Shown piece after piece: positions 1,639 to 49,895 of a stretch of 49,895 bases of DNA. The position numbers and the translations under genes are program-made. Every line of letters starts with the position of its first letter. Positions within the stretch are counted from its first letter, which is position 1. A model generated the notes under the pieces. That model made no database searches. It saw nothing but the letters and a program-made list of their open reading frames with translations, and was not told where the DNA came from. Source of the stretch: a virus; IMG/VR virus record IMGVR_UViG_3300045988_177506; one strand, written 5' to 3'.

Positions 1639-1667
1639 TTGACAACCTCTTTTTTATGTGTTATAAT
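1639..1667 (+). promoter_or_regulatory. Perfect sigma-70 consensus promoter TTGACA-17-TATAAT (+ strand)
   Basis: ttgacaacctcttttttatgtgttataat. No ORF downstream. Confidence 0.7.
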
Positions 1668-18820: not shown

Positions 18821-19503
18821 TTATCGCTCCTTATGTTTTGACAAAATCTGTCTGTATCTTTCAAAAACACGACGTCCTAATTCTTCTTTGCTTAAATTCT
18901 CTTCCTCGAAAGTCGGCATAGGAGGATATTCGGGCGGTTTCTTATCGCTGAATGATATTGCACTAACAATAGCCATCCTAAAATAATTGCCTTGCAACCA
19001 AATATCCTGTATAGCCGTCTGCCGTTTCCTTTTGTAAACGCGAAAGTAAAACTGCAATGATTTAGGGTCAAGTTCCCAAAACTTATCTTCGGGGAAGTCT
19101 ATAAGCAAAGCGTAAAACAAGAATTCTTCACGCAACCACTCTTCGATTGTCGCATACTCGGACAGTCGTTTGCCGTGGTTGATATTCTGTTCGGCGTCGT
19201 CAAGACCAAGATTTACGCTTTCTTGGTCGTTTGGTTGAAAAAACTTCCTTTTGCAAACATTTCGATAATGGGCGACAGATCTTCAAGCGTGCCGCCGTTG
19301 TCAAAATGTGCCTCCAATTCGTCTGCCGCTTTTTCGGGAGTAGTACCCATAATGTAAGCGGCGAGGTAAGGAAGTATTTCGTAAGGCTGGTCTTCAAACT
19401 GTTCGAGCATTTTCGGGGTCATCCCAAGTCTGCCGAGTTCGCGCATAGCCTTAAATCCAATGTTTTTAGTGCAATATTCTTTTCCGTTGATAGTTACTGT
19501 CAT
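18821..19503 (-). CDS. Tail assembly chaperone -1 frameshift fusion product (gpGT-like)
   Basis: The -1 frame past the TTTTTTC slip site stays open (QPNDQESVNLGLDDAEQNINHGKRLSEYATIEEW...) into ORF 18821..19135. Confidence 0.6.
19213..19503 (-). CDS. Tail assembly chaperone (gpG-like)
   Basis: 96 aa, immediately upstream of TMP. Ends at a slippery site. Confidence 0.65.
   Translation of the reverse strand: MTVTINGKEYCTKNIGFKAMRELGRLGMTPKMLEQFEDQPYEILPYLAAYIMGTTPEKAADELEAHFDNGGTLEDLSPIIEMFAKGSFFNQTTKKA
19237..19243 (-). other. Programmed -1 ribosomal frameshift slippery heptamer T_TTT_TTC
   Basis: rc of gaaaaaa; G-frame codons are agt ttt ttc. The -1 frame joins the downstream ORF. Confidence 0.6.
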
Positions 19504-24180: not shown

Positions 24181-25785
24181 TCACTCTTGCGAGATAATTA
24201 CGCCGTCAGCATCAGCGGTTGTCGTTTCAACCACGTTCTCTTTCGCTTTGATTTCTTCGTCCTTTCTATCCCAGTCATCGGCGACTGTATCAATATCGTT
24301 AAATAACTGTGCCGCTTTGAGAATATGTTTTTTAGGCATATTTGAGTTGTACAGTTCGCGTATGCTTTGTGCCTTTACAAGCAGATTATCATTCTTGTTA
24401 ATATTGTACTTGATATCAATTTGGCTCGCATACAATTCATTAACGGGACAGCTTGGCACGGTACGGCATATCATAAGCATCTTTTTCAAGATTGTATAAT
24501 CGCCGCGCAAAAGCGTTCTTATGTCATTGTTAATAAGCGTGTAGGCATTCTCCCAGCCCCCGCCTAAACGACGTGCATCGCCGGTATCCCCGCCGCTCGT
24601 TACTTGTCCGCTTGCAAGAGGTACCCCAGCGATATCGTACATTTTGCTGATACGCTGTTCGTAATATTGGTCAAGCCCGTCAAACGGAATTTCTACTTTA
24701 AGAGTAGTTAAGTCCGGCTGTGCCGATACCCCACCTTGTGCGGCAGGTAATATAATGGCGCCCGCAGCTATCATATCACGGATTTCGTCGGCTTTCAATT
24801 CTACACCCTTAAAAACAAAAATGACATTGGAATTTTGAACAACCATATCCGCAATGTTTGAAAGCAACATGTTGACAAGGTTAAACAAAGACCTATTAAG
24901 CTCAACCATTCCTATGCGCGATGAATTTATAGAATGTTCTGTAATCGGCAAATAATGTAACGTCTTATCCGGCAAATCAAGCTTGTGGACGTCTTCAATA
25001 TTCCGATAATTATTGTCACTTCCGCATTCAAAGTAAGCGTATTGAGTTTCAATCGATATGAGTTTCTTTATATCGACACTATCCGTTCCAACGTCTTGGT
25101 CAATTACCGACACACTGAACAGCGGCTCTTTCTTTTTGCCACTTGAATAAACAACAAAATTATCAACCGGCGACAAAACTTCGTATTCAAAGGGGGCTTC
25201 TGTTTCTATATTATACCCATCTTCGACCCCGGCGTATCTTAATAAAGGTTGCCCGTCAATCCCTACGTTTTTAGTTGGGAGAATTATGTCCGTGCGAGGA
25301 GCAACATAATCGACACCAATGCCAGTCGCGTATATCCATTCTTTCAAATCCTTGTCTTTCGAGAAAAAGTCAACATCCGTGAAGTATCTGCCAAGATAGG
25401 TCAAATCATCACTTTTGACGTCGCTTTTATGCGTATACTCACGAGTATCTCCAGTTAAAAAACCGACCTTGAATTGCACTTGTCTGAACGCGTGATTTTC
25501 AGTTATTTTATTGTTATTATATTCGTCCTTGTTATAAGGGCGCGTCTTGGTGTCAATATCTTGGTCACCTTTCATATAATCCCAAAAATACTGTATTTTT
25601 TTTGCGTTGTCGGAGTGCGTAGCAAAAATACGACCCATATATTTTTTAAGTATATCCAAGCCGTAACCGCTTTCAGGCGCGAAGTCGCTCGCCTCATACG
25701 GTATTTCTATCCGTTTTATTCCCTTGTATGACATTTTCGGTATATCCACGGTAAAATCTCCTTTTTCACCTATATAAAACCACAA
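24181..25785 (-). CDS. Portal protein (SPP1 gp6-like)
   Basis: 534 aa directly downstream of the large terminase. Confidence 0.75.
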   Translation of the reverse strand: MWFYIGEKGDFTVDIPKMSYKGIKRIEIPYEASDFAPESGYGLDILKKYMGRIFATHSDNAKKIQYFWDYMKGDQDIDTKTRPYNKDEYNNNKITENHAFRQVQFKVGFLTGDTREYTHKSDVKSDDLTYLGRYFTDVDFFSKDKDLKEWIYATGIGVDYVAPRTDIILPTKNVGIDGQPLLRYAGVEDGYNIETEAPFEYEVLSPVDNFVVYSSGKKKEPLFSVSVIDQDVGTDSVDIKKLISIETQYAYFECGSDNNYRNIEDVHKLDLPDKTLHYLPITEHSINSSRIGMVELNRSLFNLVNMLLSNIADMVVQNSNVIFVFKGVELKADEIRDMIAAGAIILPAAQGGVSAQPDLTTLKVEIPFDGLDQYYEQRISKMYDIAGVPLASGQVTSGGDTGDARRLGGGWENAYTLINNDIRTLLRGDYTILKKMLMICRTVPSCPVNELYASQIDIKYNINKNDNLLVKAQSIRELYNSNMPKKHILKAAQLFNDIDTVADDWDRKDEEIKAKENVVETTTADADGVIISQE

Positions 25786-25811: not shown

Positions 25812-27698
25812 TTAAATTCTTATAATTTTTACCTTTTTACTGTCATTTTTTTGCCCGACAAAATGTTTAATGTACATACATTCTTCGTCAATGCTATCGT
25901 CGTATTCGAGTTTTTGAGTGTAATCATACGATGTTAAGTATGTCATAAACTTACCCATTGCGCTTGACTGAGCAAACATTCCAAAACATGGGTAGACCAT
26001 TACACGCTTAAAATAAGCCTCGTTTGCATATACAATCTCTTTCATTTTATCTTCTTTATTTTGCGTTGTATAAAACTCTTCTATTTCGCAAAAATCTGCG
26101 CCGGCTTTTGCCAATTTCGCTCTAAGCAAATTCCCCAATGATGTATCCGTATTATTTTCAACGGCAAGCCTGACAATGTGATGGTCAAGAACCTTTCTTA
26201 CTATCTTGTCGTAAACGTCTTGCATTATAGTCAGTTCAAATATACAATCCACTAAATAGTGCTTCTCGATAACAACGCCATACTCATTCTCTTCTTTCCT
26301 TACTCTGTGGATCCCCAACGTTACGTAGTTTTTACCGCTTCTTGCCGGGTCAAGGCACGCCAATGAATATCCGGACAGCCCTGCCGGTAATTCTGAATAT
26401 GTTTGCAGTTTATCGTAAGCCAACGGTGTTGTATCAGGATTTTGCGGGTTTTGTTGATACATTGCCTCAAACGTCTTATCATTGATAGCCCGCTTAGCCT
26501 CAAAGTGTTGAAGAGAAAATCTCAACGGGAAAGTTGACCTGTAGCTATCCATATCAATTGCCGGAACCTTTATAAACACGCAATCGCCTTTTTCGTTTTT
26601 ATAGGCGTACTTGAATATGTTCGTCCTAATAATCGTCCCACCACTATAATGCCGTATAAGCGTTGAAACAATGTCGTTAATATTATAAGCGGTGCCGCCA
26701 ACAACAATATAGAAATCATTTTCGTCATAATTACGGGTAGACCACTGGTTCCAATACATTTCAATATCAAACTGGTGTTGCTTAAGGTTAAGCATGTCTT
26801 TTGACCTGCAAATATCATCCAAAAACAGATACCTTGCTCTCACGCCATCGACAGGAGTATCTTTCGACACCACCCTGACATTCACAGGCTTATTACTATC
26901 CGTTAACGTAATATAGCCTTCCTTGTTCCGGCAAACAGAGAACATATCCATCGGATTTGCCCCGTCCTCAAAGTATTTAGCGTATAACGGGAACACTTTC
27001 CCAAAAAACGGTTTTTGCATGACGTCAACTATTGTTTTCGTGTTGTTGGTCACCAAAGACGGGTTTCCGACTACCTTTAAGACATCGTTGTTCGGGTCTA
27101 TTCCCAAAACCCACGCTATCGCCAATGCATCGCTTATAGATTTTCCGTAACCAACCGGGTATTGTTTACTAATAAAACGCACATTCTTTTTTATGACCAT
27201 CTGCGTAAAGTAGTAAGCAAACGGGCTTGTCACGCCTGTGTACTTATTGTCGTTGTATGGGTCAATAGTATTGGCAAACACCTTTCGCGTTTCCGGAAGA
27301 TCCCTTTCCCACAACAAACAGAATGTTTCTAAGTTTCTGAACGCCACTAAGTATTCCAACTCTTCATACACGTTTATGTATTCCGAAATGTACCCTTTCA
27401 GTTGTTCCTTTTCCTCGTCATCAACTCTTCTAAGCGCAGTGGTAAGCGATTTTATTTTGTCCTTGCATATCTTGAAATCATACCGCATTATCTGCCCAAT
27501 AAGCTTTACAATTTCCTCTTCCATCCCGTTAGGCGCAAAATATTCGTGTATCTGCTTTTTGAACAATCCGGCTCTCATCCCCAACAAATCCAACACCGTC
27601 GCGTCGTCATTGTAGCATTTCTGTATAAGCCGAACCTTGTCCAGCAAATCCCCGCTGCGCTCTATCGCCTCTTCATAGCTTTTCCCTTTCATCCTCAC
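25812..27698 (-). CDS. Terminase large subunit
   Basis: 628 aa with Walker A YPVGYGKS near the N-terminus; followed by the portal gene. Confidence 0.8.
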   Translation of the reverse strand: MRMKGKSYEEAIERSGDLLDKVRLIQKCYNDDATVLDLLGMRAGLFKKQIHEYFAPNGMEEEIVKLIGQIMRYDFKICKDKIKSLTTALRRVDDEEKEQLKGYISEYINVYEELEYLVAFRNLETFCLLWERDLPETRKVFANTIDPYNDNKYTGVTSPFAYYFTQMVIKKNVRFISKQYPVGYGKSISDALAIAWVLGIDPNNDVLKVVGNPSLVTNNTKTIVDVMQKPFFGKVFPLYAKYFEDGANPMDMFSVCRNKEGYITLTDSNKPVNVRVVSKDTPVDGVRARYLFLDDICRSKDMLNLKQHQFDIEMYWNQWSTRNYDENDFYIVVGGTAYNINDIVSTLIRHYSGGTIIRTNIFKYAYKNEKGDCVFIKVPAIDMDSYRSTFPLRFSLQHFEAKRAINDKTFEAMYQQNPQNPDTTPLAYDKLQTYSELPAGLSGYSLACLDPARSGKNYVTLGIHRVRKEENEYGVVIEKHYLVDCIFELTIMQDVYDKIVRKVLDHHIVRLAVENNTDTSLGNLLRAKLAKAGADFCEIEEFYTTQNKEDKMKEIVYANEAYFKRVMVYPCFGMFAQSSAMGKFMTYLTSYDYTQKLEYDDSIDEECMYIKHFVGQKNDSKKVKIIRI

Positions 27699-27849
27699 TC
27701 TCCGTCTTTATCCTATACTTTCTACGCAATAACGGCACCGAAAACTCTATAAGCTTTACCACCGGCACCCCCTTTATCGCTTTTATCCTATTCAATTCCC
27801 GCCACGTTTCTTCATTAACCGGGATCGCCTTCATTTTTTTCTTTTCCAT
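27673..27849 (-). CDS. Small RHH-like DNA-binding protein (58 aa) in the small-terminase position
   Basis: MEKKKMKAIPVNEETWRELNRIKAIKGVPVVKLIEFSV.... RBS AGGAGAG. Overlaps the TerL start by 26 nt. Confidence 0.5.
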   Translation of the reverse strand: MEKKKMKAIPVNEETWRELNRIKAIKGVPVVKLIEFSVPLLRRKYRIKTESEDEREKL

Positions 27850-27874
27850 ATCTCTCTCCTCTTTGCTTTTTTAT

Positions 27875-27903
27875 ATTATACTATAACTTTTTACTTTTGT
27901 CAA
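27875..27903 (-). promoter_or_regulatory. Perfect sigma-70 consensus promoter TTGACA-17-TATAAT driving the packaging/morphogenesis operon
   Basis: rc reads TTGACAaaagtaaaaagttatagTATAAT, about 25 nt before the RBS of the RHH-like ORF. Confidence 0.7.
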
Positions 27904-27912
27904 GTGTTAATA

Positions 27913-27944
27913 AGAGAAAAAACCCCGTACGGTTAAGCACGGGG
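27913..27944 (-). terminator. Intrinsic terminator (- strand) immediately upstream of the late promoter
   Basis: rc reads CCCCGTgcttaaccgtACGGGGttttttctc. Confidence 0.6.
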
Positions 27945-28037
27945 AAAACGAAGAAATCTGCACTTTTCCCTTTTCGCCCCCAAGATTTACCCTGAGGGCG
28001 CGGTGAGGGGGAAAATATGCAAAGGGAATTAACCCTA
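27913..28037 (-). ncRNA. Candidate small RNA (about 120 nt) from the consensus promoter at 28045..28073 to the terminator at 27913..27944
   Basis: Perfect promoter and terminator about 125 nt apart. No ATG and no ORF with an RBS. Internal hairpins (CCCUCAGGG, CCCCC...GGGGG). Confidence 0.45.
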
Positions 28038-28044
28038 CACCACT

Positions 28045-28073
28045 ATTATACAAGCTCTTTCCGCTTTTGTCAA
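28045..28073 (-). promoter_or_regulatory. Perfect sigma-70 consensus promoter TTGACA-17-TATAAT (- strand) inside the large intergenic region
   Basis: rc reads TTGACAaaagcggaaagagcttgTATAAT. Confidence 0.65.
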
Positions 28074-28149
28074 CTATTTTTGCAACATTTATTACACCAA
28101 TTTTTGCGATACACCCTCCACAACATTACCAAAATCACATCCTACAAAT

Positions 28150-29180
28150 ATCACTTTTGTCCATATTTTTAAGCCCCAATGTTCGTTTTGTCCATCACCG
28201 CAAATGCCAATATTTGGGAATTTAAACCCCCGCCACGCCACTTTTTATTTCTCTCTATTGCTTTTTCACTACCCATCTCCTATTCCTGTAGCTCTATCTC
28301 CAGATTACTAATCCCATAGCTTATCATATCCCTCTTGCTATTCATAACTACAGCACAGTCCCTCTTATTAACTCTCAAGACTTCTACTATCTACCCAATC
28401 CCCCATCCCCCCTTTCCCTTTGTTTTGTATTGCCTATTTATCTTGCTATTATTGCTTATTTCTTGTGCTATTTGGTATATCCCCAGCTATAGTACTATAA
28501 TATTTCTCTTGGCTTAGTGTAATTATTTTTTTTGTGTATATTCTTGGGAGTATACTATGAGAATTTTTTTGTGTATTTTTTGAGAGAGTAATAGCATAGT
28601 ACCCAAAAATGCAAAAAATAGGGGCGGGCGGGCATAAAAAACGCACCCACAACCACAGCCACGAACAGCAGTGCCCAAATAACGCCGAAAAATAGCCCTA
28701 ATTTCAGCGTAATATCTTTGGTAGGGTAAATTCACATTTGAAATATTAAAACGAAATACGGGGCAAATTTAAGCGTTTTAAGGGCATACGGGGAAAGGCA
28801 GACAACGGAGCGGGCGGCAAAACGTATTGCATAATATATATTATATATCATTACACGCACGAATAAATAATAATTACGCTTGTATAAATAACAAGACGAT
28901 TTACGACCAAATTGAACACGCGCATATATCTATATTTACACGCTATTATTATATCATTACAAGCGTATAAGAAATCTTTACGCCAATATTTGAGAAATTA
29001 ACCGCGGGGGGGGGTATTTCATAAGCTTGCCAAGATTTACAGGCGTATAGCTTTATAATCTACCGCAAACAATACGCACACGACGGAGCGGGCAACTTTT
29101 ACAAATGCCAATATTTGAGAAAATGCCAATATTTGGGAAACATACACCGCCGGCAAAATGTTCGTTTTGTCCATCTTTTT
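28150..29180. repeat. Iteron-like repeat cluster: GCCAATATTTG(G/A)GAA x4 (28205, 28982, 29105, 29124) and (G/C)TTTTGTCCAT x3 (28153, 28187, 29165); candidate origin or packaging region
   Basis: Repeats read directly. The last two GCCAATATTTG copies are tandem (atgccaatatttgagaaaatgccaatatttgggaaa). Confidence 0.5.
28260..28420. other. Strongly CT-rich (+ strand) low-complexity tract
   Basis: ctcccatctcctattcctgtagctctatctcc...caatcccccatcccccctttcccttt. Confidence 0.5.
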
Positions 29181-29343
29181 AGATATCAATTTTATCTATA
29201 TTTTTATCGATAAATCCATATCAATAAGAACAACCAATATATGCAAGACGCACAGAAAAAGCACGCGGAACTATGCAGGGCGCACAGCGGAAAACCAAAA
29301 AACAAAAAATCGTAAAAAATCTTAAAAAATCATACAAAAACGC

Positions 29344-29372
29344 TTGACAAGCGGGGGAAGGTGTGATATAAT
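29344..29372 (+). promoter_or_regulatory. Perfect sigma-70 consensus promoter TTGACA-17-TATAAT for the + strand cassette
   Basis: ttgacaagcgggggaaggtgtgatataat. The 5' leader carries a hairpin AGCTTG...CAAGCT. Confidence 0.7.
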
Positions 29373-29439
29373 GAAGGTGAGCTTGAAAGGAAACGCGAGG
29401 CGCGGCAAGCTTAAAAACAAAAAAACGGAGAAAACAAAA

Positions 29440-30084
29440 ATGAAAAAATTAAACGAAATCAGAGAAGAAAGACAGGCGAACGCGGCAAGGGTCGCAGAGC
29501 TTAACGAAAAAATTGACAGAGCAGTGAACAGCTGGCGGACGAAGGAGCCGTTTCCGGAAGACTTCGCGGCGTTGGGCGCCGAACTCGCGACGGCAAAGAA
29601 AATCGGGGCGATTTTGAAAAACAATTATAACAACCGACTCGCGGCGGAGGTGCTGCCGGCGTTGGTGGAAATCCTGAAAAAATACAACGGCAAGAAGTAC
29701 GGCGAAAAGACGAAGGAAAAGATGGGCGAAGAGTTCAAAGCGATGACGGGTTGCGGCATTTGGTTAGAGCGTTATGTGTTCTCGCAAAAAAGCAATCACG
29801 CCCATATATACGAGATGCGCGACGGATACAGACACGGCGAAGAAATCGAGTTTTTCACAAATTCAAATAACATCATCAGCGAAGACAACGTTATACAGGC
29901 GCAACCGGCGGAAGCTTTCAGACTTTACGACTTCGGCGAATATATCGAAACACCGGCGGAAAGGGTCGCACAGCTTGCGGAAAAGAAAAAAGAGCTTGAC
30001 GAGATGCGGGCGGCGTTCAATAAAGCGGTAGACGCTTACAACGCTTTGACCGTCAACGGCATTGACCACGAAAAAAGAGCATAA
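29440..30084 (+). CDS. Hypothetical protein (first gene of the GC-rich + cassette)
   Basis: Start MKKLNEIREE with GGAG 9 nt upstream. GC content is visibly higher than in the surrounding genome. Confidence 0.6.
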   Translation: MKKLNEIREERQANAARVAELNEKIDRAVNSWRTKEPFPEDFAALGAELATAKKIGAILKNNYNNRLAAEVLPALVEILKKYNGKKYGEKTKEKMGEEFKAMTGCGIWLERYVFSQKSNHAHIYEMRDGYRHGEEIEFFTNSNNIISEDNVIQAQPAEAFRLYDFGEYIETPAERVAQLAEKKKELDEMRAAFNKAVDAYNALTVNGIDHEKRA

Positions 30085-30098
30085 AGGAGGGCAAAACA

Positions 30099-30836
30099 AT
30101 GAAATTTTACAAAACTTCTAACGGGCTGGAACTTCTGACAGACTGGGCGGGCGATTGCCACGACTGCAAAACGTACAACAAGAACCAACAGAGAGCAAGA
30201 GAGGCGGCGGGGAAGCTTTTACATTCCGGCAATTTGATTTTTGAACACGGAAACACCCCGCGCAATTCTTCCGAATTTGTGGCGAATATGCCTTACACCT
30301 CGGCAAGCGACTTTGCGGCGTTGTGGGCGACTTGTGCATATTGTGCCTATCAGATTAAAAACAGACAAACGAAGCTTTATTTGGTGGGTATTGCGTTAAC
30401 CGATGCCCAGGCGGTCAGCGTGTGGAGAGATTGCGAAAGCAATTATATTTTTGAAATTGTCGGCGAAGAACCGAAGGCGCAGCCGATTATATTAAACACA
30501 GATAGCGACATCGCAAGCGTGGCGGTTGACTGCGGAAACGGCAATATTATTACTTACGAAAAAGCAAACGGAGCGGACGGGGACACCAGCGTTATAATTT
30601 TCGCAAGCTACGACGCATATATTAAATATTGCGCACGTCGAAATATTGACACTTTGCACGACGTGAAAAACATTGCAACGGCGAGATTTAACGGGGCGAA
30701 TATATGCCAATCTGATTGCGCCGGGCTGCACGGTGAAAAAGAGATCCCGGACGCCGAAAAGGTTTACACGCTTTCGGGCAGATTTGCTATAAAAGCTAAA
30801 GATGATGCCGTATATTTTGTAAAAATTGAGGAGTAA
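30099..30836 (+). CDS. Hypothetical Cys-containing protein (second gene of the + cassette)
   Basis: RBS AAGGAGG. ORF. Confidence 0.6.
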   Translation: MKFYKTSNGLELLTDWAGDCHDCKTYNKNQQRAREAAGKLLHSGNLIFEHGNTPRNSSEFVANMPYTSASDFAALWATCAYCAYQIKNRQTKLYLVGIALTDAQAVSVWRDCESNYIFEIVGEEPKAQPIILNTDSDIASVAVDCGNGNIITYEKANGADGDTSVIIFASYDAYIKYCARRNIDTLHDVKNIATARFNGANICQSDCAGLHGEKEIPDAEKVYTLSGRFAIKAKDDAVYFVKIEE

Positions 30837-30839
30837 AAA

Positions 30840-31883
30840 ATGGTTGAAAACGTTTACAACGGCGAAGACATAGCCGAATTTTTAACCGGCTGCGGGTGCG
30901 GGTGCGAGTTTCGCGCTCGTACCTTTTCGCCCTCTTCGGTTGTGTATTTCTTTGATTTAATAAACCCAATGACCACGGCGGCAAAAATGCGGGCGGCGGT
31001 TCGGGCGGTCGCCTTAACAATTCACAAAACGGCGATTTTAACAGATGGCGGGAAGTATAACTTTGCCATCGCGATCCCACGCGAAAACCGAAGCTTCCCC
31101 ACCTTTTACGACGTAGCAAACACCGGGCAGACATCCCCAAAAGATGGAGATATAACCTTCGGGATAAAAGAGGACGGGGAAAGGCTTACGGCAAACATCA
31201 ACAGCCTTCCGCACCTGCTTATCAGCGGAGCGAGCGGCAGCGGCAAAAGCGTTTTTATGCATTCGGTCATTGCGTCGCTTTCGTGTTTCTCTGCCCCTTA
31301 TAAATGCGATTTTGTGATGATTGACATGAAAGGCACGGAGCTGACACCCTGGCACAATTCCCGCCGGCTTATTCGTCCAGTGATAACGAACGCACGCGAG
31401 GCAGTCCAAGCCCTTGGCGACGTCGAAGCAACAATGAACAATCGATATAAAAAGCTCATAGCCCGCGGAAAAATTGACAACTCGGCGGGCGATTTCCCCC
31501 GGCTGGTGGTTTTCGTCGACGAACTGGCAGATCTCATGCTTTACAAGAAAAAGGAAGCAACAAGGTTTTTAACCAGCATAGCACAAAAAGGCAGGGCGGC
31601 GGGGGTTCATTTGATACTCGCAACGCAGCGCCCCTCGGTGGATGTTGTAACGGGACTAATTAAAGCGAACATTCCGGCGCGCGCAGTTTTCTCCACTACT
31701 TCCGCAATCGATAGCATGGTAATGCTCGGACACAAAGGAGCGGAACAGCTCAAAGGCAAGGGCGATAGCCTGGTGAAACTCCCCAACGGTACCGAATACC
31801 ACGTACAGGCACCAAATTTTACGGCGCAAATGATATACAACGTCACCCACCCGCGCCGAACACTCCCGGACATTTTCAACTAA
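30840..31883 (+). CDS. FtsK/SpoIIIE-family P-loop DNA translocase-like ATPase
   Basis: Walker A GASGSGKS, Walker B VVFVDELADL, and LATQRPSVDVVTGLIKANIPARAVFS, a motif typical of FtsK/SpoIIIE/TraB-type motors. Confidence 0.7.
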   Translation: MVENVYNGEDIAEFLTGCGCGCEFRARTFSPSSVVYFFDLINPMTTAAKMRAAVRAVALTIHKTAILTDGGKYNFAIAIPRENRSFPTFYDVANTGQTSPKDGDITFGIKEDGERLTANINSLPHLLISGASGSGKSVFMHSVIASLSCFSAPYKCDFVMIDMKGTELTPWHNSRRLIRPVITNAREAVQALGDVEATMNNRYKKLIARGKIDNSAGDFPRLVVFVDELADLMLYKKKEATRFLTSIAQKGRAAGVHLILATQRPSVDVVTGLIKANIPARAVFSTTSAIDSMVMLGHKGAEQLKGKGDSLVKLPNGTEYHVQAPNFTAQMIYNVTHPRRTLPDIFN

Positions 31884-32077: not shown

Positions 32078-32269
32078 TTAATCCCTCTGTTGGCGCCTTT
32101 TCTTCTCGTAAGTTTTAGCAATATCTCGGAAATCTTCGCGAGTTGCGTGTATTTCCACGGTATAAAAACAAGTCTGACACCGTGGGCAAAAGTGTTTGCG
32201 CCCTACTTTATTAACCGTGTTGCGGCTTTCTATAACGTGGCTTTCGGAACCACATAACGGGCATATCAT
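32078..32269 (-). CDS. Zinc-ribbon protein (CPLCG...CPRCQ)
   Basis: Four-Cys zinc-ribbon layout. Last gene of the - strand block. Confidence 0.5.
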   Translation of the reverse strand: MICPLCGSESHVIESRNTVNKVGRKHFCPRCQTCFYTVEIHATREDFRDIAKTYEKKRRQQRD

Positions 32270-35439: not shown

Positions 35440-35468
35440 ATTATAACACCATATTTGGCGGTTGTCAA
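35440..35468 (-). promoter_or_regulatory. Perfect sigma-70 consensus promoter TTGACA-17-TATAAT
   Basis: rc reads TTGACAaccgccaaatatggtgtTATAAT, followed by AAGGAG and ATG. Confidence 0.65.
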
Positions 35469-45691: not shown

Positions 45692-45882
45692 CCTCTCATT
45701 GCCTCCCACACAGCCTCTTCGTCCGAGCAAATCACAAACACGTCACCGTCCTTTTGCTGATATTTTTGATAATACCAACGCTTGACAAACCGCATATCCG
45801 CTATTGCTCGAACAGACAAAACCGTTCTCACTTTATCACCGTTTTTTACAACGACCTTGTATATGTATCGCTTACTCATCAA
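45661..45882 (-). CDS. Hypothetical small protein
   Basis: ORF. Confidence 0.4.
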   Translation of the reverse strand: MMSKRYIYKVVVKNGDKVRTVLSVRAIADMRFVKRWYYQKYQQKDGDVFVICSDEEAVWEAMRGCQKSEPKKI

Positions 45883-46912
45883 TCTTTCCCGTAACTTTCT
45901 TGAATACTGCTTCGTCGTATTCAGGTAACGATTGCAAATATTCTTTCATTTCTTTCGGCATAAACGACCATGCGACTTCGTTCGGCACTCGTACTATTGC
46001 GGGGATATTCGTTTCATACCATTCAAGGTCACCTTTTAACTCTTCGGCATTATTAAATTTCGGATACCAATTGAACGAAAATATTTTGCGCAAAACCGCT
46101 TCATGCCTTGCCATTGTTGTTCTTTTATTAAACAATTTAAGCCTTGCGCCCTCTTGATTTTGACAAAAAATGCACCGGGAAACGGCTTTGCATTTTGTTA
46201 CGCCAAAACTGCAATTCACACCGTTGCTGTAACTCACGCCGTTGCTCTCATTCACACCGCTGCTCTTATTCACGCCGTTGCTACCACGCACGCCGTTGCT
46301 CCGATTTACACCGCTGCTGACATGCACACCGTTGCTACCATTCACACCGTTGCTCTTATTCACACCGTTGCTACCATTCACACCGTTGCTGTAACTCACG
46401 CCGTCGCTCCAATTCACGCCGTCGCTCTCATCCACGCCAAAACTGCAATTCACACCGCTGCTGACATTCACACCGTTGCTACCATTCACACCGTTGCTGT
46501 AACTCACGCCGTTGCTCTCATTCACACCGCTGCTTTGTAAATCTTCTTGAATAAGACGGATAAATTCGTCAAAAGTATACGTTTTAATAATTTTCAAAGT
46601 TTTTGCTACGCTTTTCTTTCCGTCAGAACTATCAAGGCACGCGTCATACGCTTCCACTTTCGCAAAATTATTCCACTGTACACTTTCGTAAAAGTTAAAG
46701 CAATCTTGTGGCTTTTTAGAAAAATGCAACCCCCAACAACATTCAGCAATATTTCCGTCAACAGTGTGTATTGTGTCCAATACATTGCCTGTTTCATCGG
46801 CATAGCAATAATCACCATGCTTTGTTCCCCACTTGGGTGCAAATGCCTTATATCCGACCGCAAGCACAGGCTTGTTTTCAATGTCTTTTTCGGTTAATCT
46901 GTATGTCTTCAT
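45872..46912 (-). CDS. Hexapeptide tandem-repeat protein (about 19 copies of S-[NSD]-G-V-x-x) with globular N- and C-terminal domains
   Basis: SSGVNESNGVSYSNGVNGSNGVNVSSGVNCSFGV..., encoded by 18-bp DNA tandem repeats. Start taken at MKTYRL. Confidence 0.6.
   Translation of the reverse strand: MKTYRLTEKDIENKPVLAVGYKAFAPKWGTKHGDYCYADETGNVLDTIHTVDGNIAECCWGLHFSKKPQDCFNFYESVQWNNFAKVEAYDACLDSSDGKKSVAKTLKIIKTYTFDEFIRLIQEDLQSSGVNESNGVSYSNGVNGSNGVNVSSGVNCSFGVDESDGVNWSDGVSYSNGVNGSNGVNKSNGVNGSNGVHVSSGVNRSNGVRGSNGVNKSSGVNESNGVSYSNGVNCSFGVTKCKAVSRCIFCQNQEGARLKLFNKRTTMARHEAVLRKIFSFNWYPKFNNAEELKGDLEWYETNIPAIVRVPNEVAWSFMPKEMKEYLQSLPEYDEAVFKKVTGKIDE
46196..46540. repeat. 18-bp tandem repeat array (about 19 units, consensus cacRccgYtgctNNNNtt) with a higher-order duplication
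   Basis: Read directly. The segment gttgctgtaactcacgccgttgctctcattcacaccgctgct occurs twice. Confidence 0.8.
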
Positions 46913-46916
46913 TTTT

Positions 46917-47471
46917 TTACTCCTTATCCTCAGGGGCTTCGTTGCCCCAGCAGTCCCAGCCTTCTGCATATTGCCGTGCAAACAGTTCTATCCGTGAAAA
47001 ATCACCGCAAAATTCTATTATTTTATCTCGCACAATGTCTGGCTTTTTGCTGTGTTCCTCACGTACGCTTTCGATAATTTGAGAGACTTTGTTTGATACT
47101 TTTGGGGGCTTCCCTTTAACGCCTATTAAACAAACCTCTGCATTAGACTTGGTGTACCACCCTACCCCAAAGAAGTTTGAGCCATTTTTGTTTTTCTTTA
47201 TCCATGTGAACCCTACTGTTTTATATTCAAAACCCCATGCTTTTATCGTATTCAACGCTTCTTGCATTTTGGGGAATGTTGCCCACATAAATAATATCGA
47301 ATTTGGTTTAGCCAATTGTCCTATCGGCAAAGCTTCAATATCCTCTTGTTTCATCGTAGAATAGTGACTGTTCGCTGTGGCTTGGATATTTCCCATGTTG
47401 CGGTATGCCCACGGGGGATCTGCATAGATAATGTCATACTTTTTGTCTGTGTTAAAAATGTCTACTTTCAT
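46917..47471 (-). CDS. MT-A70-family N6-adenine DNA methyltransferase (DPPW)
   Basis: IIYADPPWAY motif. Confidence 0.7.
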   Translation of the reverse strand: MKVDIFNTDKKYDIIYADPPWAYRNMGNIQATANSHYSTMKQEDIEALPIGQLAKPNSILFMWATFPKMQEALNTIKAWGFEYKTVGFTWIKKNKNGSNFFGVGWYTKSNAEVCLIGVKGKPPKVSNKVSQIIESVREEHSKKPDIVRDKIIEFCGDFSRIELFARQYAEGWDCWGNEAPEDKE

Positions 47472-47494: not shown

Positions 47495-47523
47495 ATTATA
47501 TCATATTATCAAAACGTTGTCAA
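47495..47523 (-). promoter_or_regulatory. Perfect sigma-70 consensus promoter TTGACA-17-TATAAT upstream of the MT-A70 gene
   Basis: rc reads TTGACAacgttttgataatatgaTATAAT, followed by AAGGAG and ATG. Confidence 0.65.
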
Positions 47524-49286: not shown

Positions 49287-49823
49287 TTAAGCCTCCCAAT
49301 TTTTCAAACGTTCAAGATACTTGTCAAACTGACATTTAGGAGCCTTATCCAAATCAATGCAGTCGCATTCTACCGCAATGGCTTTCAATTCAGCATTGGT
49401 TATCCCTGTTTGTTTTTGGATAGCAAGGATCTGCTTTCTGCGAATGTCTTTCAAAGACGGTGCAGGGGCAGGTTCAGCTTTTTCGGCAGTTGTATACTTT
49501 GTTTTATCGTTTTCCCAATAAACATCCGCGCCAATACCCAAATATTTGCACGCATTTCCTAACGCATCGGTTATCGCCATTTTATACGCCTCGTCGCTCG
49601 CATTGAACGTCTTCTTGCTAACGACATAACTGACCATTCTATTCCCGCCAACACCTGTAATCGGCTTACCCCATTCGTCCCCAAATTTTACATACAAATC
49701 AATTTCGGCAAAAGCAAGACGTTCTCCGGTGCTAACTTCTTCTGTCCACAATCTTTTGATTTCATAGTACCACCCAAAGCCACACGCACCAAATTCGCTT
49801 GTAAGCATTTTTACGCGCCACAT
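49287..49823 (-). CDS. Erf-family single-strand annealing protein
   Basis: ITDALGNACKYLGIGADVY matches the Erf motif (cf. P22 Erf SYARKYCLNGLFGIDD). Upstream of Gp157; the gene start lies in the terminal overlap. Confidence 0.55.
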   Translation of the reverse strand: MWRVKMLTSEFGACGFGWYYEIKRLWTEEVSTGERLAFAEIDLYVKFGDEWGKPITGVGGNRMVSYVVSKKTFNASDEAYKMAITDALGNACKYLGIGADVYWENDKTKYTTAEKAEPAPAPSLKDIRRKQILAIQKQTGITNAELKAIAVECDCIDLDKAPKCQFDKYLERLKNWEA

Positions 49824-49895
49824 TGTGTTTATATCCGTCCCCTTAAAACGTCCATTATCAAACGCTTTTAGGGCGTCTGACGGTACGGCACGGAA
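49777..49895. repeat. Second copy of the 119-bp terminal overlap
   Basis: Identical to 1..119. Confidence 0.9.

Follow-up and report, generated by a model that had tools for sequence, protein, structure and literature searches.

Replication origins of Ceduovirus (c2-type) phages are intergenic stretches without open reading frames (ORFs) that lie between divergent early and late modules and have two flanking promoters; in lactococcal c2-type origins, the non-coding stretch between promoters PE1 and PE2 is the origin (PMC7150918). Origin types differ in sequence between Ceduovirus groups, and each supports plasmid replication (PMC7150918). Origins of phage SPP1 combine direct repeats with an AT-rich unwinding element, and its packaging site, pac, overlaps gene 1 (PMC6316719). 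Here we analyze an intergenic region of an uncultured gut phage, located at positions 27850–29440 of IMG/VR record IMGVR_UViG_3300045988_177506 (49,895 nucleotides; this whole stretch is referred to as the window). This gap, which is conserved, forms a multipartite non-coding control region with three promoters, a predicted structured small RNA, and lineage-specific repeat boxes. An initial annotation had proposed it as a candidate origin, packaging site, or partition site. In our analysis, origin function was best supported, if indirectly, packaging was weakened, and partition was disfavored. Our tentative model, possible though short of probable, is that the core of the region serves as a replication origin and nucleoprotein assembly or control hub, resembling the transcribed between-promoters origin of the c2 type. 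As with every functional statement made below, this is inferred from sequence.

All six reading frames across 27850–29440 are rich in stops (16–32 per frame, with TAA, TAG, and TGA mixed), and no longer gap exists in the genome, in agreement with the initial annotation. As every frame contains all three stop types, stop-codon recoding was ruled out. Within this gap, we delineated two families of repeats that occur nowhere else in the genome. The first, box A (ATGCCAATATTTGRGAA), is the four-copy repeat, two in tandem, that had been noted previously. Its copies (at 28204, 28980 with one mismatch, 29105, and 29123) number four against an expected 0.05. A reported three-copy motif, TTTTGTCCAT, was also recovered (at 28155, 28186, and 29165). 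The second family consists of box B (AATGTTCGTTTTGTCCATC), an exact 19-mer with two copies (at 28178 and 29157, 979 bp apart), and box B', a related 26-mer (at 28146 and 29181), for a total of four B/B' copies. Box A and box B/B' each thus provide three or more clustered iterons in non-coding DNA. The remainder of the genome contains no comparable non-coding repeat cluster, only a two-copy 21-bp repeat (1578–1618).

The arrangement of these boxes is equally distinctive. All lie on the plus strand, in a left cluster (28146–28220; B' at 28146–28171, B at 28178–28196, and A at 28204–28220), a solitary box A with one mismatch (28980–28996), and a right cluster (29105–29206; A at 29105–29121, A at 29123–29139, B at 29157–29175, and B' at 29181–29206). 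Box order is mirrored between the two clusters (B', B, A on the left; A, A, B, B' on the right) but orientation is direct throughout, so the clusters did not arise by simple duplication. Box A, a partial palindrome, follows a 1 + 1 + 2 pattern across the region. Scans of IMG/VR with 15-mers of boxes A and B returned single chance matches only, unrelated to the window. CGTTTT was considered as a shared core motif and rejected, being only ~3-fold enriched with some copies in ribosome-binding-site contexts.

To determine which features are conserved, we used homologues of the large terminase (TerL) and of the neighboring 214-aa protein to collect seven full-length versions of the gap, that of the window included, along with partial contigs. 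Homologues of the 214-aa protein came from ~70 contigs. The full-length versions fall into two clades. Clade 1 comprises the window, a 50,005-bp IMG/VR/ENA contig, and contigs L250, L252, and L254, while clade 2 comprises L241 and L253, with TerL ~75% identical. Between the clades, most of the gap aligns poorly (12–45% identity per segment), and close relatives differ by indels of 20–130 nt in the core. The order of elements is nonetheless identical in 7 of 7 full-length versions. The left part consists of promoter P2, a terminator, the small RNA, promoter P1, the left boxes, and a G-poor tract with CTCTTATTAAC and a C-run. The middle contains TTTTTTGTGTA, AAATAGGGG(N)GGG, a conserved island, box C, an AT-rich variable segment, and a second box C. 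On the right are the right boxes, an array of the palindrome TATCGATA, operator-like repeats, and promoter P(+).

The boxes themselves are specific to each lineage. Within clade 1, the left box cluster is 98% identical. Clade 2 lacks box A and carries a variant B box, TGTCGTTTTCCTATTAT, exactly twice, each copy where a B box stands in clade 1 (with spacings of 941 and 815 bp). Box B changed in concert between the clades. The presence of box A parallels that of a domain in a nearby gene encoding a 63-aa protein (32078–32269, minus strand), which consists solely of an NrdR-type zinc ribbon (Pfam PF22811, 32 bits versus a cutoff of 27.2) and has weak additional matches to the Lar and Ogr/Delta late-activator zinc fingers. 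The NrdR-type domain was recorded for this gene in clade-1 contigs L250, L251, L252, and L254, where box A is present. The equivalent genes of clade 2, which also lacks box A, are without it. The 63-aa protein is accordingly a candidate for binding box A, and we regard this as only a lead.

Three strong promoters frame the region. The genome contains six perfect TTGACA-N17-TATAAT promoters against 0.05 expected, and three of these flank the gap in divergent orientation. P2 (27875–27903, minus strand) precedes the operon that begins with a small ribbon-helix-helix (RHH)-like ORF, TerL, and portal. P1 (28045–28073, minus strand) lies upstream of the small RNA. P(+) (29344–29372, plus strand), which also has a TG extension, precedes a cassette encoding the 214-aa, 245-aa, and FtsK-like proteins. 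P1 and P2 match the sigma-70 consensus at 12 of 12 positions, and all three promoters are conserved in both clades. From P1 to P(+) extends a core of ~1.27 kb without consensus promoters. In L251, the equivalent of P(+) (~460–490) contains a G8 run within a spacer of 19 nt rather than 17, where the window has G5; slippage could possibly tune this promoter. The other three perfect promoters of the window are at 1639–1667 (plus strand), 35440–35468 (minus strand), and 47495–47523 (minus strand), with the first adjoining the 21-bp tandem repeat mentioned above. All transcription units of the phage appear to be driven by host-type promoters of consensus sequence.

Upstream of P(+) are two direct repeats of TATGCA.G.CGCACAG, read from the sequence (29240–29255 and 29272–29287, plus strand). 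These are kept in clade 2 as TGTACAAACTGCACA and TGTGCAGAATGTACA, with a between-clade identity of 59%, and they look like operators.

The transcript initiated at P1 is predicted to be a structured small RNA of ~125 nt (27915–28038, minus strand), extending from ~7 nt past the P1 −10 element to the U-tract of an intrinsic terminator. The terminator hairpin (27923–27944, minus strand) has 8 bp (6 of them G-C) and a 6-nt loop, and is followed by U6. Neither an AUG nor a Shine-Dalgarno sequence is present in the P1 transcript. Its predicted layout includes a 5' hairpin, a long-range helix around a second hairpin, and the terminator. The fold has a minimum free energy of −50.8 kcal/mol (z = −4.75), which 0 of 200 shuffled sequences equaled. 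Within clade 1, this segment is the best conserved part of the gap (96–98% identity). The clade-2 versions differ by 13 nt in length and share the same fold layout (z = −3.1 and −3.5).

A covariance model built from clade 1 gave a weak match to the L241 copy (18 bits, E 0.08) and none to the L253 copy at E ≤ 1. When L241 was aligned to the model, 96% of cells were paired, versus 36–61% in slid controls, with five double-sided pair changes; these counts come from an alignment that was itself fitted to the model, and from two clades only. The covariation evidence is thus supportive rather than conclusive. A search of Rfam gave no match in the window (best sub-threshold score 22.9 bits versus a gathering threshold of 49.5), and the window contains no tRNA genes. 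A scan for targets of the small RNA with RNAduplex was uninformative, yielding unrealistic long-loop duplexes. Taken together, the region is predicted to include a new small RNA gene with its own promoter, conserved structure, and intrinsic terminator. The small RNA and its terminator, along with two of the perfect promoters, the hairpin island, and the TATCGATA array, had been missed in the initial annotation.

Several additional elements occupy the core. Next to the left boxes is a G-poor, C/T-rich tract (28230–28470, plus strand), which includes CTCTTATTAAC (28362–28372), conserved in both clades. Its central part (28260–28420) had been described as pyrimidine-only, but is 72% pyrimidine (A 22%, C 37%, G 5.6%, T 35%). 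This segment has the lowest G content in the genome, but its composition is like that of the antisense of adjoining minus-strand genes. It overlaps the only canonical G-quadruplex (G4) motif of the genome, GGGAAAGGGGGGATGGGGGATTGGG (28394–28418, minus strand), which appears as a C-run on the plus strand. The G4 motif is kept in six of the seven full-length versions, including both clade-2 genomes. At the centre of the region (28525–28632, plus strand) are two copies of TTTTTTGTGTA, TAATAGC, and AAAAATAGGGGCGGGCGGGC, and the purine/pyrimidine skew switches at 28500–28600. The motif AAATAGGGG(N)GGG is conserved in both clades, with near variants in L242, L243, and L248, whose TerL is 50–57% identical.

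Right of the centre is the conserved island (28720–28785), which contains the inverted repeat TTAAAACG-N20-CGTTTTAA (arms at 28745–28752 and 28773–28780). Its between-clade identity (83%) is the highest of all segments, and the 8-bp arms are invariant in every relative examined. A homologue of the island, TAAAACG.AATAC....CAAATTTGAGCGTTTTA, and a second partial copy are present at 230–330 of L260, an unrelated 3-kb metagenome contig, with a C10 run and small phage-like ORFs alongside. The island therefore reaches beyond this phage genus. Box C (CGGAGCGG; 28806–28813 and 29084–29091, plus strand) is found at equivalent positions in both clades. Between its two copies is an AT-rich hypervariable segment (28829–28975; 75–82% A+T), with 66% identity within clade 1 and a 57-bp duplication in relatives.

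Some of the features initially reported here did not stand out from background. We estimate that ~300 11-mer pairs occur by chance per 50 kb, and ~1 10-bp inverted repeat per 1.5 kb. The inverted repeat in the AT-rich segment exists (10 bp; 28875–28884/28958–28967) but is at chance level. Similarly, the 11-mer CCAAGATTTAC, reported to occur twice, has a third copy at 19206 and a chance-level frequency. The G9 run also exists, 3 nt from where it had been placed (29006–29014, plus strand), but is strain-specific. Relatives have GGGAGG, GGGGG, GGGCG, or AAGCG at this position. Phase variation had been suggested for this tract, but conservation lends it no support: the run lies between boxes, outside any promoter or ORF, and is missing from all relatives. 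Further right, at 29183–29226, is the remnant of an array of TATCGATA with a 14-bp period, reduced to one perfect copy (29205–29212) plus degenerate copies. Perfect copies number one each in the window, L250, L252, and L253, three in L254, four in the IMG/VR relative, six in L241, and zero in L251.

More distant relatives, with TerL 50–57% identical, retain a gap of similar layout. In L242, L244/245, and L248, a gap of 1.2–1.9 kb separates a divergent cassette from a leftward operon. Among the cassette products are homologues of the 214-aa protein and, for the 245-aa protein, of its N-domain. These relatives keep the long gap but have no FtsK-like gene. The leftward operon opens with two replication genes, followed by the small RHH-like ORF and TerL, such that 2–4 genes lie between the long gap and the RHH-TerL pair. 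In L242, L244, and L248, these genes on the TerL side of the gap encode a replisome-organizer N-domain (PHROG matches of 1e-22 to 1e-34) and a primase zinc-ribbon. A 215-aa primase-zinc-ribbon-like protein is encoded just upstream of the small RHH-like ORF and TerL in distant relatives. The gaps of L242 and L244 contain classic iterons (GGTTTACG, four copies) beside an AT-rich stretch, as well as palindromic TGTCAAG-N8-CTTGACA boxes, arranged 1 + 2 around a ~600-bp core, like box A in the window. The same box is also found at the TerL-operon promoter in distant relatives. In the equivalent intergenic zone of two contigs, tRNA genes (Trp, Cys, Gln) are present on the TerL strand (L243, 7004–7645; L248, 4383–4457).

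Our data suggest an origin as the favored function of the core, because of the conserved order of elements, the box architecture, the divergent strong promoters, the skew flip, and the replication genes and iterons beside the gap of relatives. The boxes are non-random and restricted to the region. The skew flip at 28500–28600 has the polarity expected of an origin, and the G4 motif strand is the non-template strand for leftward transcription. The combination that characterizes c2-type origins is present as well, with ORF-free DNA between divergent modules, P1 and P2 in tandem in the same direction, and a first transcript devoid of a ribosome-binding site. In the proposed mechanism, lytic replication would start in the core, which would also be where the nucleoprotein complex assembles. 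Phage DNA-binding proteins that bridge both ends of the core would recognize the boxes, with the 58-aa RHH-like protein and the 63-aa NrdR-type zinc-ribbon protein as candidates. With the flanking promoters firing divergently, the core would become negatively supercoiled, and this would make it easier for the AT-rich segment to open and for the G4 and hairpin to extrude. The P1 transcript, made between tandem promoters, might act as in lactococcal c2-type origins.

A number of observations weigh against this model. An initiator was undetected in the window, with no homologue found of the organizer and primase-like genes of relatives, and DnaA boxes are absent from the region. The genes beside the DnaB-like helicase (36.5–38.8 kb) have no family matches, so the origin could be located there instead. 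Cumulative GC skew, a check suggested in the initial annotation, just tracks gene orientation and was uninformative. The strand asymmetry of the core is like that of adjoining coding DNA and may equally reflect transcription. The AT-rich segment is not the extreme of the genome, as four or five other places are equal or richer. Finally, the spacing of box clusters (~950 bp) is far above that of known iteron origins.

The strongest alternative is that the region is a transcriptional switch only. Here, the boxes would be operators that loop the left and right clusters together, coordinating the three promoters and the small RNA, with the core a mere spacer. Three perfect promoters require repression or timing control, and operator-like repeats are found upstream of P(+). 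The 1 + 1 + 2 arrangement of the partly palindromic box A, the 1 + 2 palindromic boxes of distant relatives with another at the TerL-operon promoter, and the co-occurrence of the NrdR-type zinc-ribbon protein with box A in clade 1 only are in keeping with such a role. However, the boxes sit 130–270 bp away from the promoters rather than over them, and they are absent elsewhere in the genome, including at its other three perfect promoters. A spacer would not be expected to preserve the island, the G4, and the AAATAGGGG motif across 50–75% TerL identity, and one of >1 kb would be costly in a tightly packed phage genome. We consider a switch alone a plausible rival, though a somewhat unlikely one.

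Recognition of DNA for packaging is the second alternative. The region would contain a cos or pac site or the boundaries of a terminal repeat, with the RHH-like protein binding the boxes as a TerL partner and cleavage occurring at the island or the B boxes. The position directly upstream of the RHH-TerL operon is suited to this role, and a TerS-sized gene was not found. Sites of cos nicking are often twofold-symmetric around a variable centre containing G/C. The island, the segment most conserved between clades, has twofold-symmetric arms around such a centre. TerL has a weak match to the T7-type nuclease domain PF22530 (E 4e-4, below cutoff), a domain associated with exact terminal repeats, and the two B boxes, 0.8–1 kb apart, could bound a terminal repeat.

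Several lines of evidence nevertheless weaken packaging, which we consider unlikely but still a serious rival. The gap and the RHH-TerL genes are adjacent in clades 1 and 2, but are separated by 2–4 genes in the 50–57% relatives, and known pac and cos sites are ≤300 bp. Of DNA ends, those of assembled contigs were examined. At least six lie within the region, distributed over three or four distinct elements that are repetitive or of low complexity (the TATCGATA array, inside which three assemblies break; the (TA)-rich segment, where two independent contigs end; and the C-run, with one). As the ends fall in differing places within tandem, low-complexity, or C-run elements, we rejected them as evidence of physical termini; they fit assembly breaks rather than a fixed terminus. 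Most contigs continue uninterrupted, and no fewer than nine cross the island.

A more speculative proposal, which we consider quite improbable, would make the P1 small RNA part of DNA metabolism, either as a c2-/ColE1-like origin RNA, priming or activating replication where no initiator is recognizable, or as a cofactor for a TerS-less terminase. The pRNA of phi29 is an analogue of the latter role. On this proposal, the box-bracketed core, with its G4 and invariant hairpin, would be a new supercoiling-activated type of origin common to an entire family of uncultured gut phages.

The core might instead encode one or two long non-coding RNAs directed outward from the centre (leftward, purine-rich and C-poor; rightward, A-rich), such as protein sponges or leaders. 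Each half is purine-loaded like the outward sense strand, as in the flanking genes, and transcription could begin at the family-wide motif AAAATAGGGG. However, no conserved sigma-70-like promoter was found centrally, where candidates match at 9–10 of 12 positions and are unconserved even in clade 1. The 20–130-nt indels between close relatives and the Rfam search, which returned only tRNAs from relatives, also make this explanation very unlikely. AAAATAGGGG was also considered as a phage-specific promoter motif and rejected, as it is not enriched elsewhere in the genome.

The two remaining explanations fare worse. Decay of coding sequence, leaving remnants of the organizer and primase-like genes of relatives plus chance repeats, could be argued from a core composition resembling flanking coding DNA and from the genes that relatives carry between gap and RHH-TerL. 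It is highly improbable, given that tblastn with the relatives' proteins returned nothing in the region, that an ORF-free architecture with conserved islands and concerted box changes is seen in two clades, and that the boxes are far above chance. A plasmid-type partition site, in which a product of the plus-strand operon would bind the TATCGATA array as a centromere and the FtsK-like ATPase would move it, is scarcely credible: it is suggested by tandem palindromic iterons directly upstream of an operon promoter (six perfect copies in L241), the lack of an integrase, and 0 prophage copies in 185,579 representative genomes, but the array is reduced to one perfect copy in the window and L253 and absent in L251, family searches found no ParA, ParM, or TubZ homologue among the window proteins (the sole such ATPase being of the FtsK/SpoIIIE type), and the 50–57% relatives keep the long gap without the FtsK-like gene.

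The genomic setting is as follows. The first and last 119 bp of the window are identical (1–119 = 49777–49895), which indicates a complete, circularly assembled phage genome of ~49,776 bp. Nearly all genes are on the minus strand. The initial annotation had correctly assigned the flanking genes, with TerL (25812–27698) and an SPP1-type portal (24181–25785) on the minus strand, and a plus-strand cassette (29440–31883) ending in an FtsK/SpoIIIE ATPase (Pfam, 1.4e-35). The late operon opens with a 58-aa ORF (27673–27849, minus strand) that overlaps the TerL start by 26 nt. Homologues of 56–69 aa precede TerL in every relative. By eye, its product looks like an RHH protein, a label for which Pfam and PDB searches gave no match. 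No TerS homologue was found beside TerL in the window. The predicted structure of the 214-aa protein is confident (pLDDT 90.5), with no fold match in PDB and matches to uncharacterised viral proteins only. Early and replication genes include a DnaB-like helicase, an exonuclease, Gam, two methyltransferases, and an HNH endonuclease. Family searches of the window proteins recovered no integrase and no recognizable replication initiator.

The plus-strand cassette varies among relatives. An extra gene encoding 65–73 aa lies between P(+) and the 214-aa gene in most of those compared (L241, L250, and L252–L255), and is missing in the window (29376–29440) and the IMG/VR contig. The second cassette gene encodes 245, 242, 118, 116, or 45 aa, or is absent.

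The phage is distant from cultured relatives. No DNA similarity was found between the window and cultured phages or plasmids, and the TerL of the nearest cultured phage is only ~22% identical. TerL homologues in the family are often 750–1030 aa in length and contain inteins (Intein_splicing and LAGLIDADG Pfam matches; for example, L244 5278–8367 and relatives P0020–P0022, P0037, and P0054, among others). The window TerL lacks an intein. Additionally, the tetranucleotide CTAG is absent from the window (0 versus 91 ± 9 expected from dinucleotide-preserving shuffles), and GATC is scarce (36 copies). CTAG is likewise absent from the 8.6 kb of L253, and occurs 28 times in the 17.9 kb of L241. Of these 28 sites, 22 are within the L241 version of the intergenic region, as a repeated ACTAGA motif, in place of which L253 and L255 have CAAGA or CATAGA. 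This pattern looks like restriction-site avoidance, with one lineage retaining a CTAG-containing repeat. Lastly, 17.8 tandem copies of an 18-nt unit (46214–46534) lie inside an ORF (45872–46981, minus strand) that has collagen-like tail-fibre PHROG matches, yet is placed in the early region and not among tail genes.

As an intergenic phage origin or control region, this locus is of a known kind; what is novel for this uncultured gut-phage genus, seen across dozens of human-gut assemblies, is the small RNA together with the conserved layout. Such phages very rarely have their origins or packaging signals mapped, and the region offers a concrete, conserved, and testable architecture. It is also a recurrent assembly breakpoint, which bears on how the completeness of these genomes is judged. 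If the core is an origin, the c2 design of a transcribed origin between promoters would extend to an unrelated group without a recognizable initiator.

Among known systems, R1 parC and pBtoxis tubC are tandem-iteron centromeres located upstream of par operons. The TATCGATA array resembles these in its 14-bp period and its position directly upstream of an operon promoter. It differs in being variable, decayed, and absent in L251, and in the lack of a partition NTPase of known type. ColE1 RNA II and mitochondrial CSB II mark R-loop or RNA-primed origins. In the window, a G4/G-cluster on the non-template strand is similarly followed leftward by a purine-rich stretch, with strong promoters nearby. 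By contrast, no promoter was found that transcribes through the G4 motif, and the downstream G content (32–37%) is below that of typical R-loop elongation zones. We therefore describe the likeness to R-loop origins as resemblance only.

Comparison with the packaging sites of SPP1 (pacL-pacC-pacR) and lambda (cosQ-cosN-cosB) reveals a shared position upstream of the terminase operon, overlapping the promoter region, and repeated protein-binding boxes (putative in the window) around a central element. The known sites are compact (~200–300 bp) and overlap or abut terS, whereas the elements of the window are spread over 1.3 kb, no TerS homologue was found, and in distant relatives this type of gap no longer adjoins TerL. 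In SPP1 and lambda, the origin is internal to the initiator gene. As in SPP1 oriL/oriR-gp38 and lambda ori-O, direct-repeat clusters of the window lie near an AT-rich segment, and the 50–57% relatives have an organizer N-domain gene and iterons beside the gap. Unlike these origins, the window has no detectable organizer, its repeat clusters are ~950 bp apart rather than adjacent, and its AT-rich segment is matched elsewhere in the genome.

The closest parallel is to the c2-type origin. Both regions are ORF-free and lie between divergent modules, both have promoter pairs in the same direction (PE1/PE2 in c2, P1/P2 in the window), and in neither is the first promoter followed by a ribosome-binding site. 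In both, sequence is conserved within a lineage and unrelated between lineages, with function kept (proven for c2, inferred for the window). The two share no sequence similarity, and they differ in layout. In the window, P2 drives the terminase/structural operon, whereas the second promoter of c2 drives early genes. P1 and P2 are separated by only ~170 bp that end in a strong terminator, and the large, repeat-rich core is located upstream of P1 rather than between the promoters.

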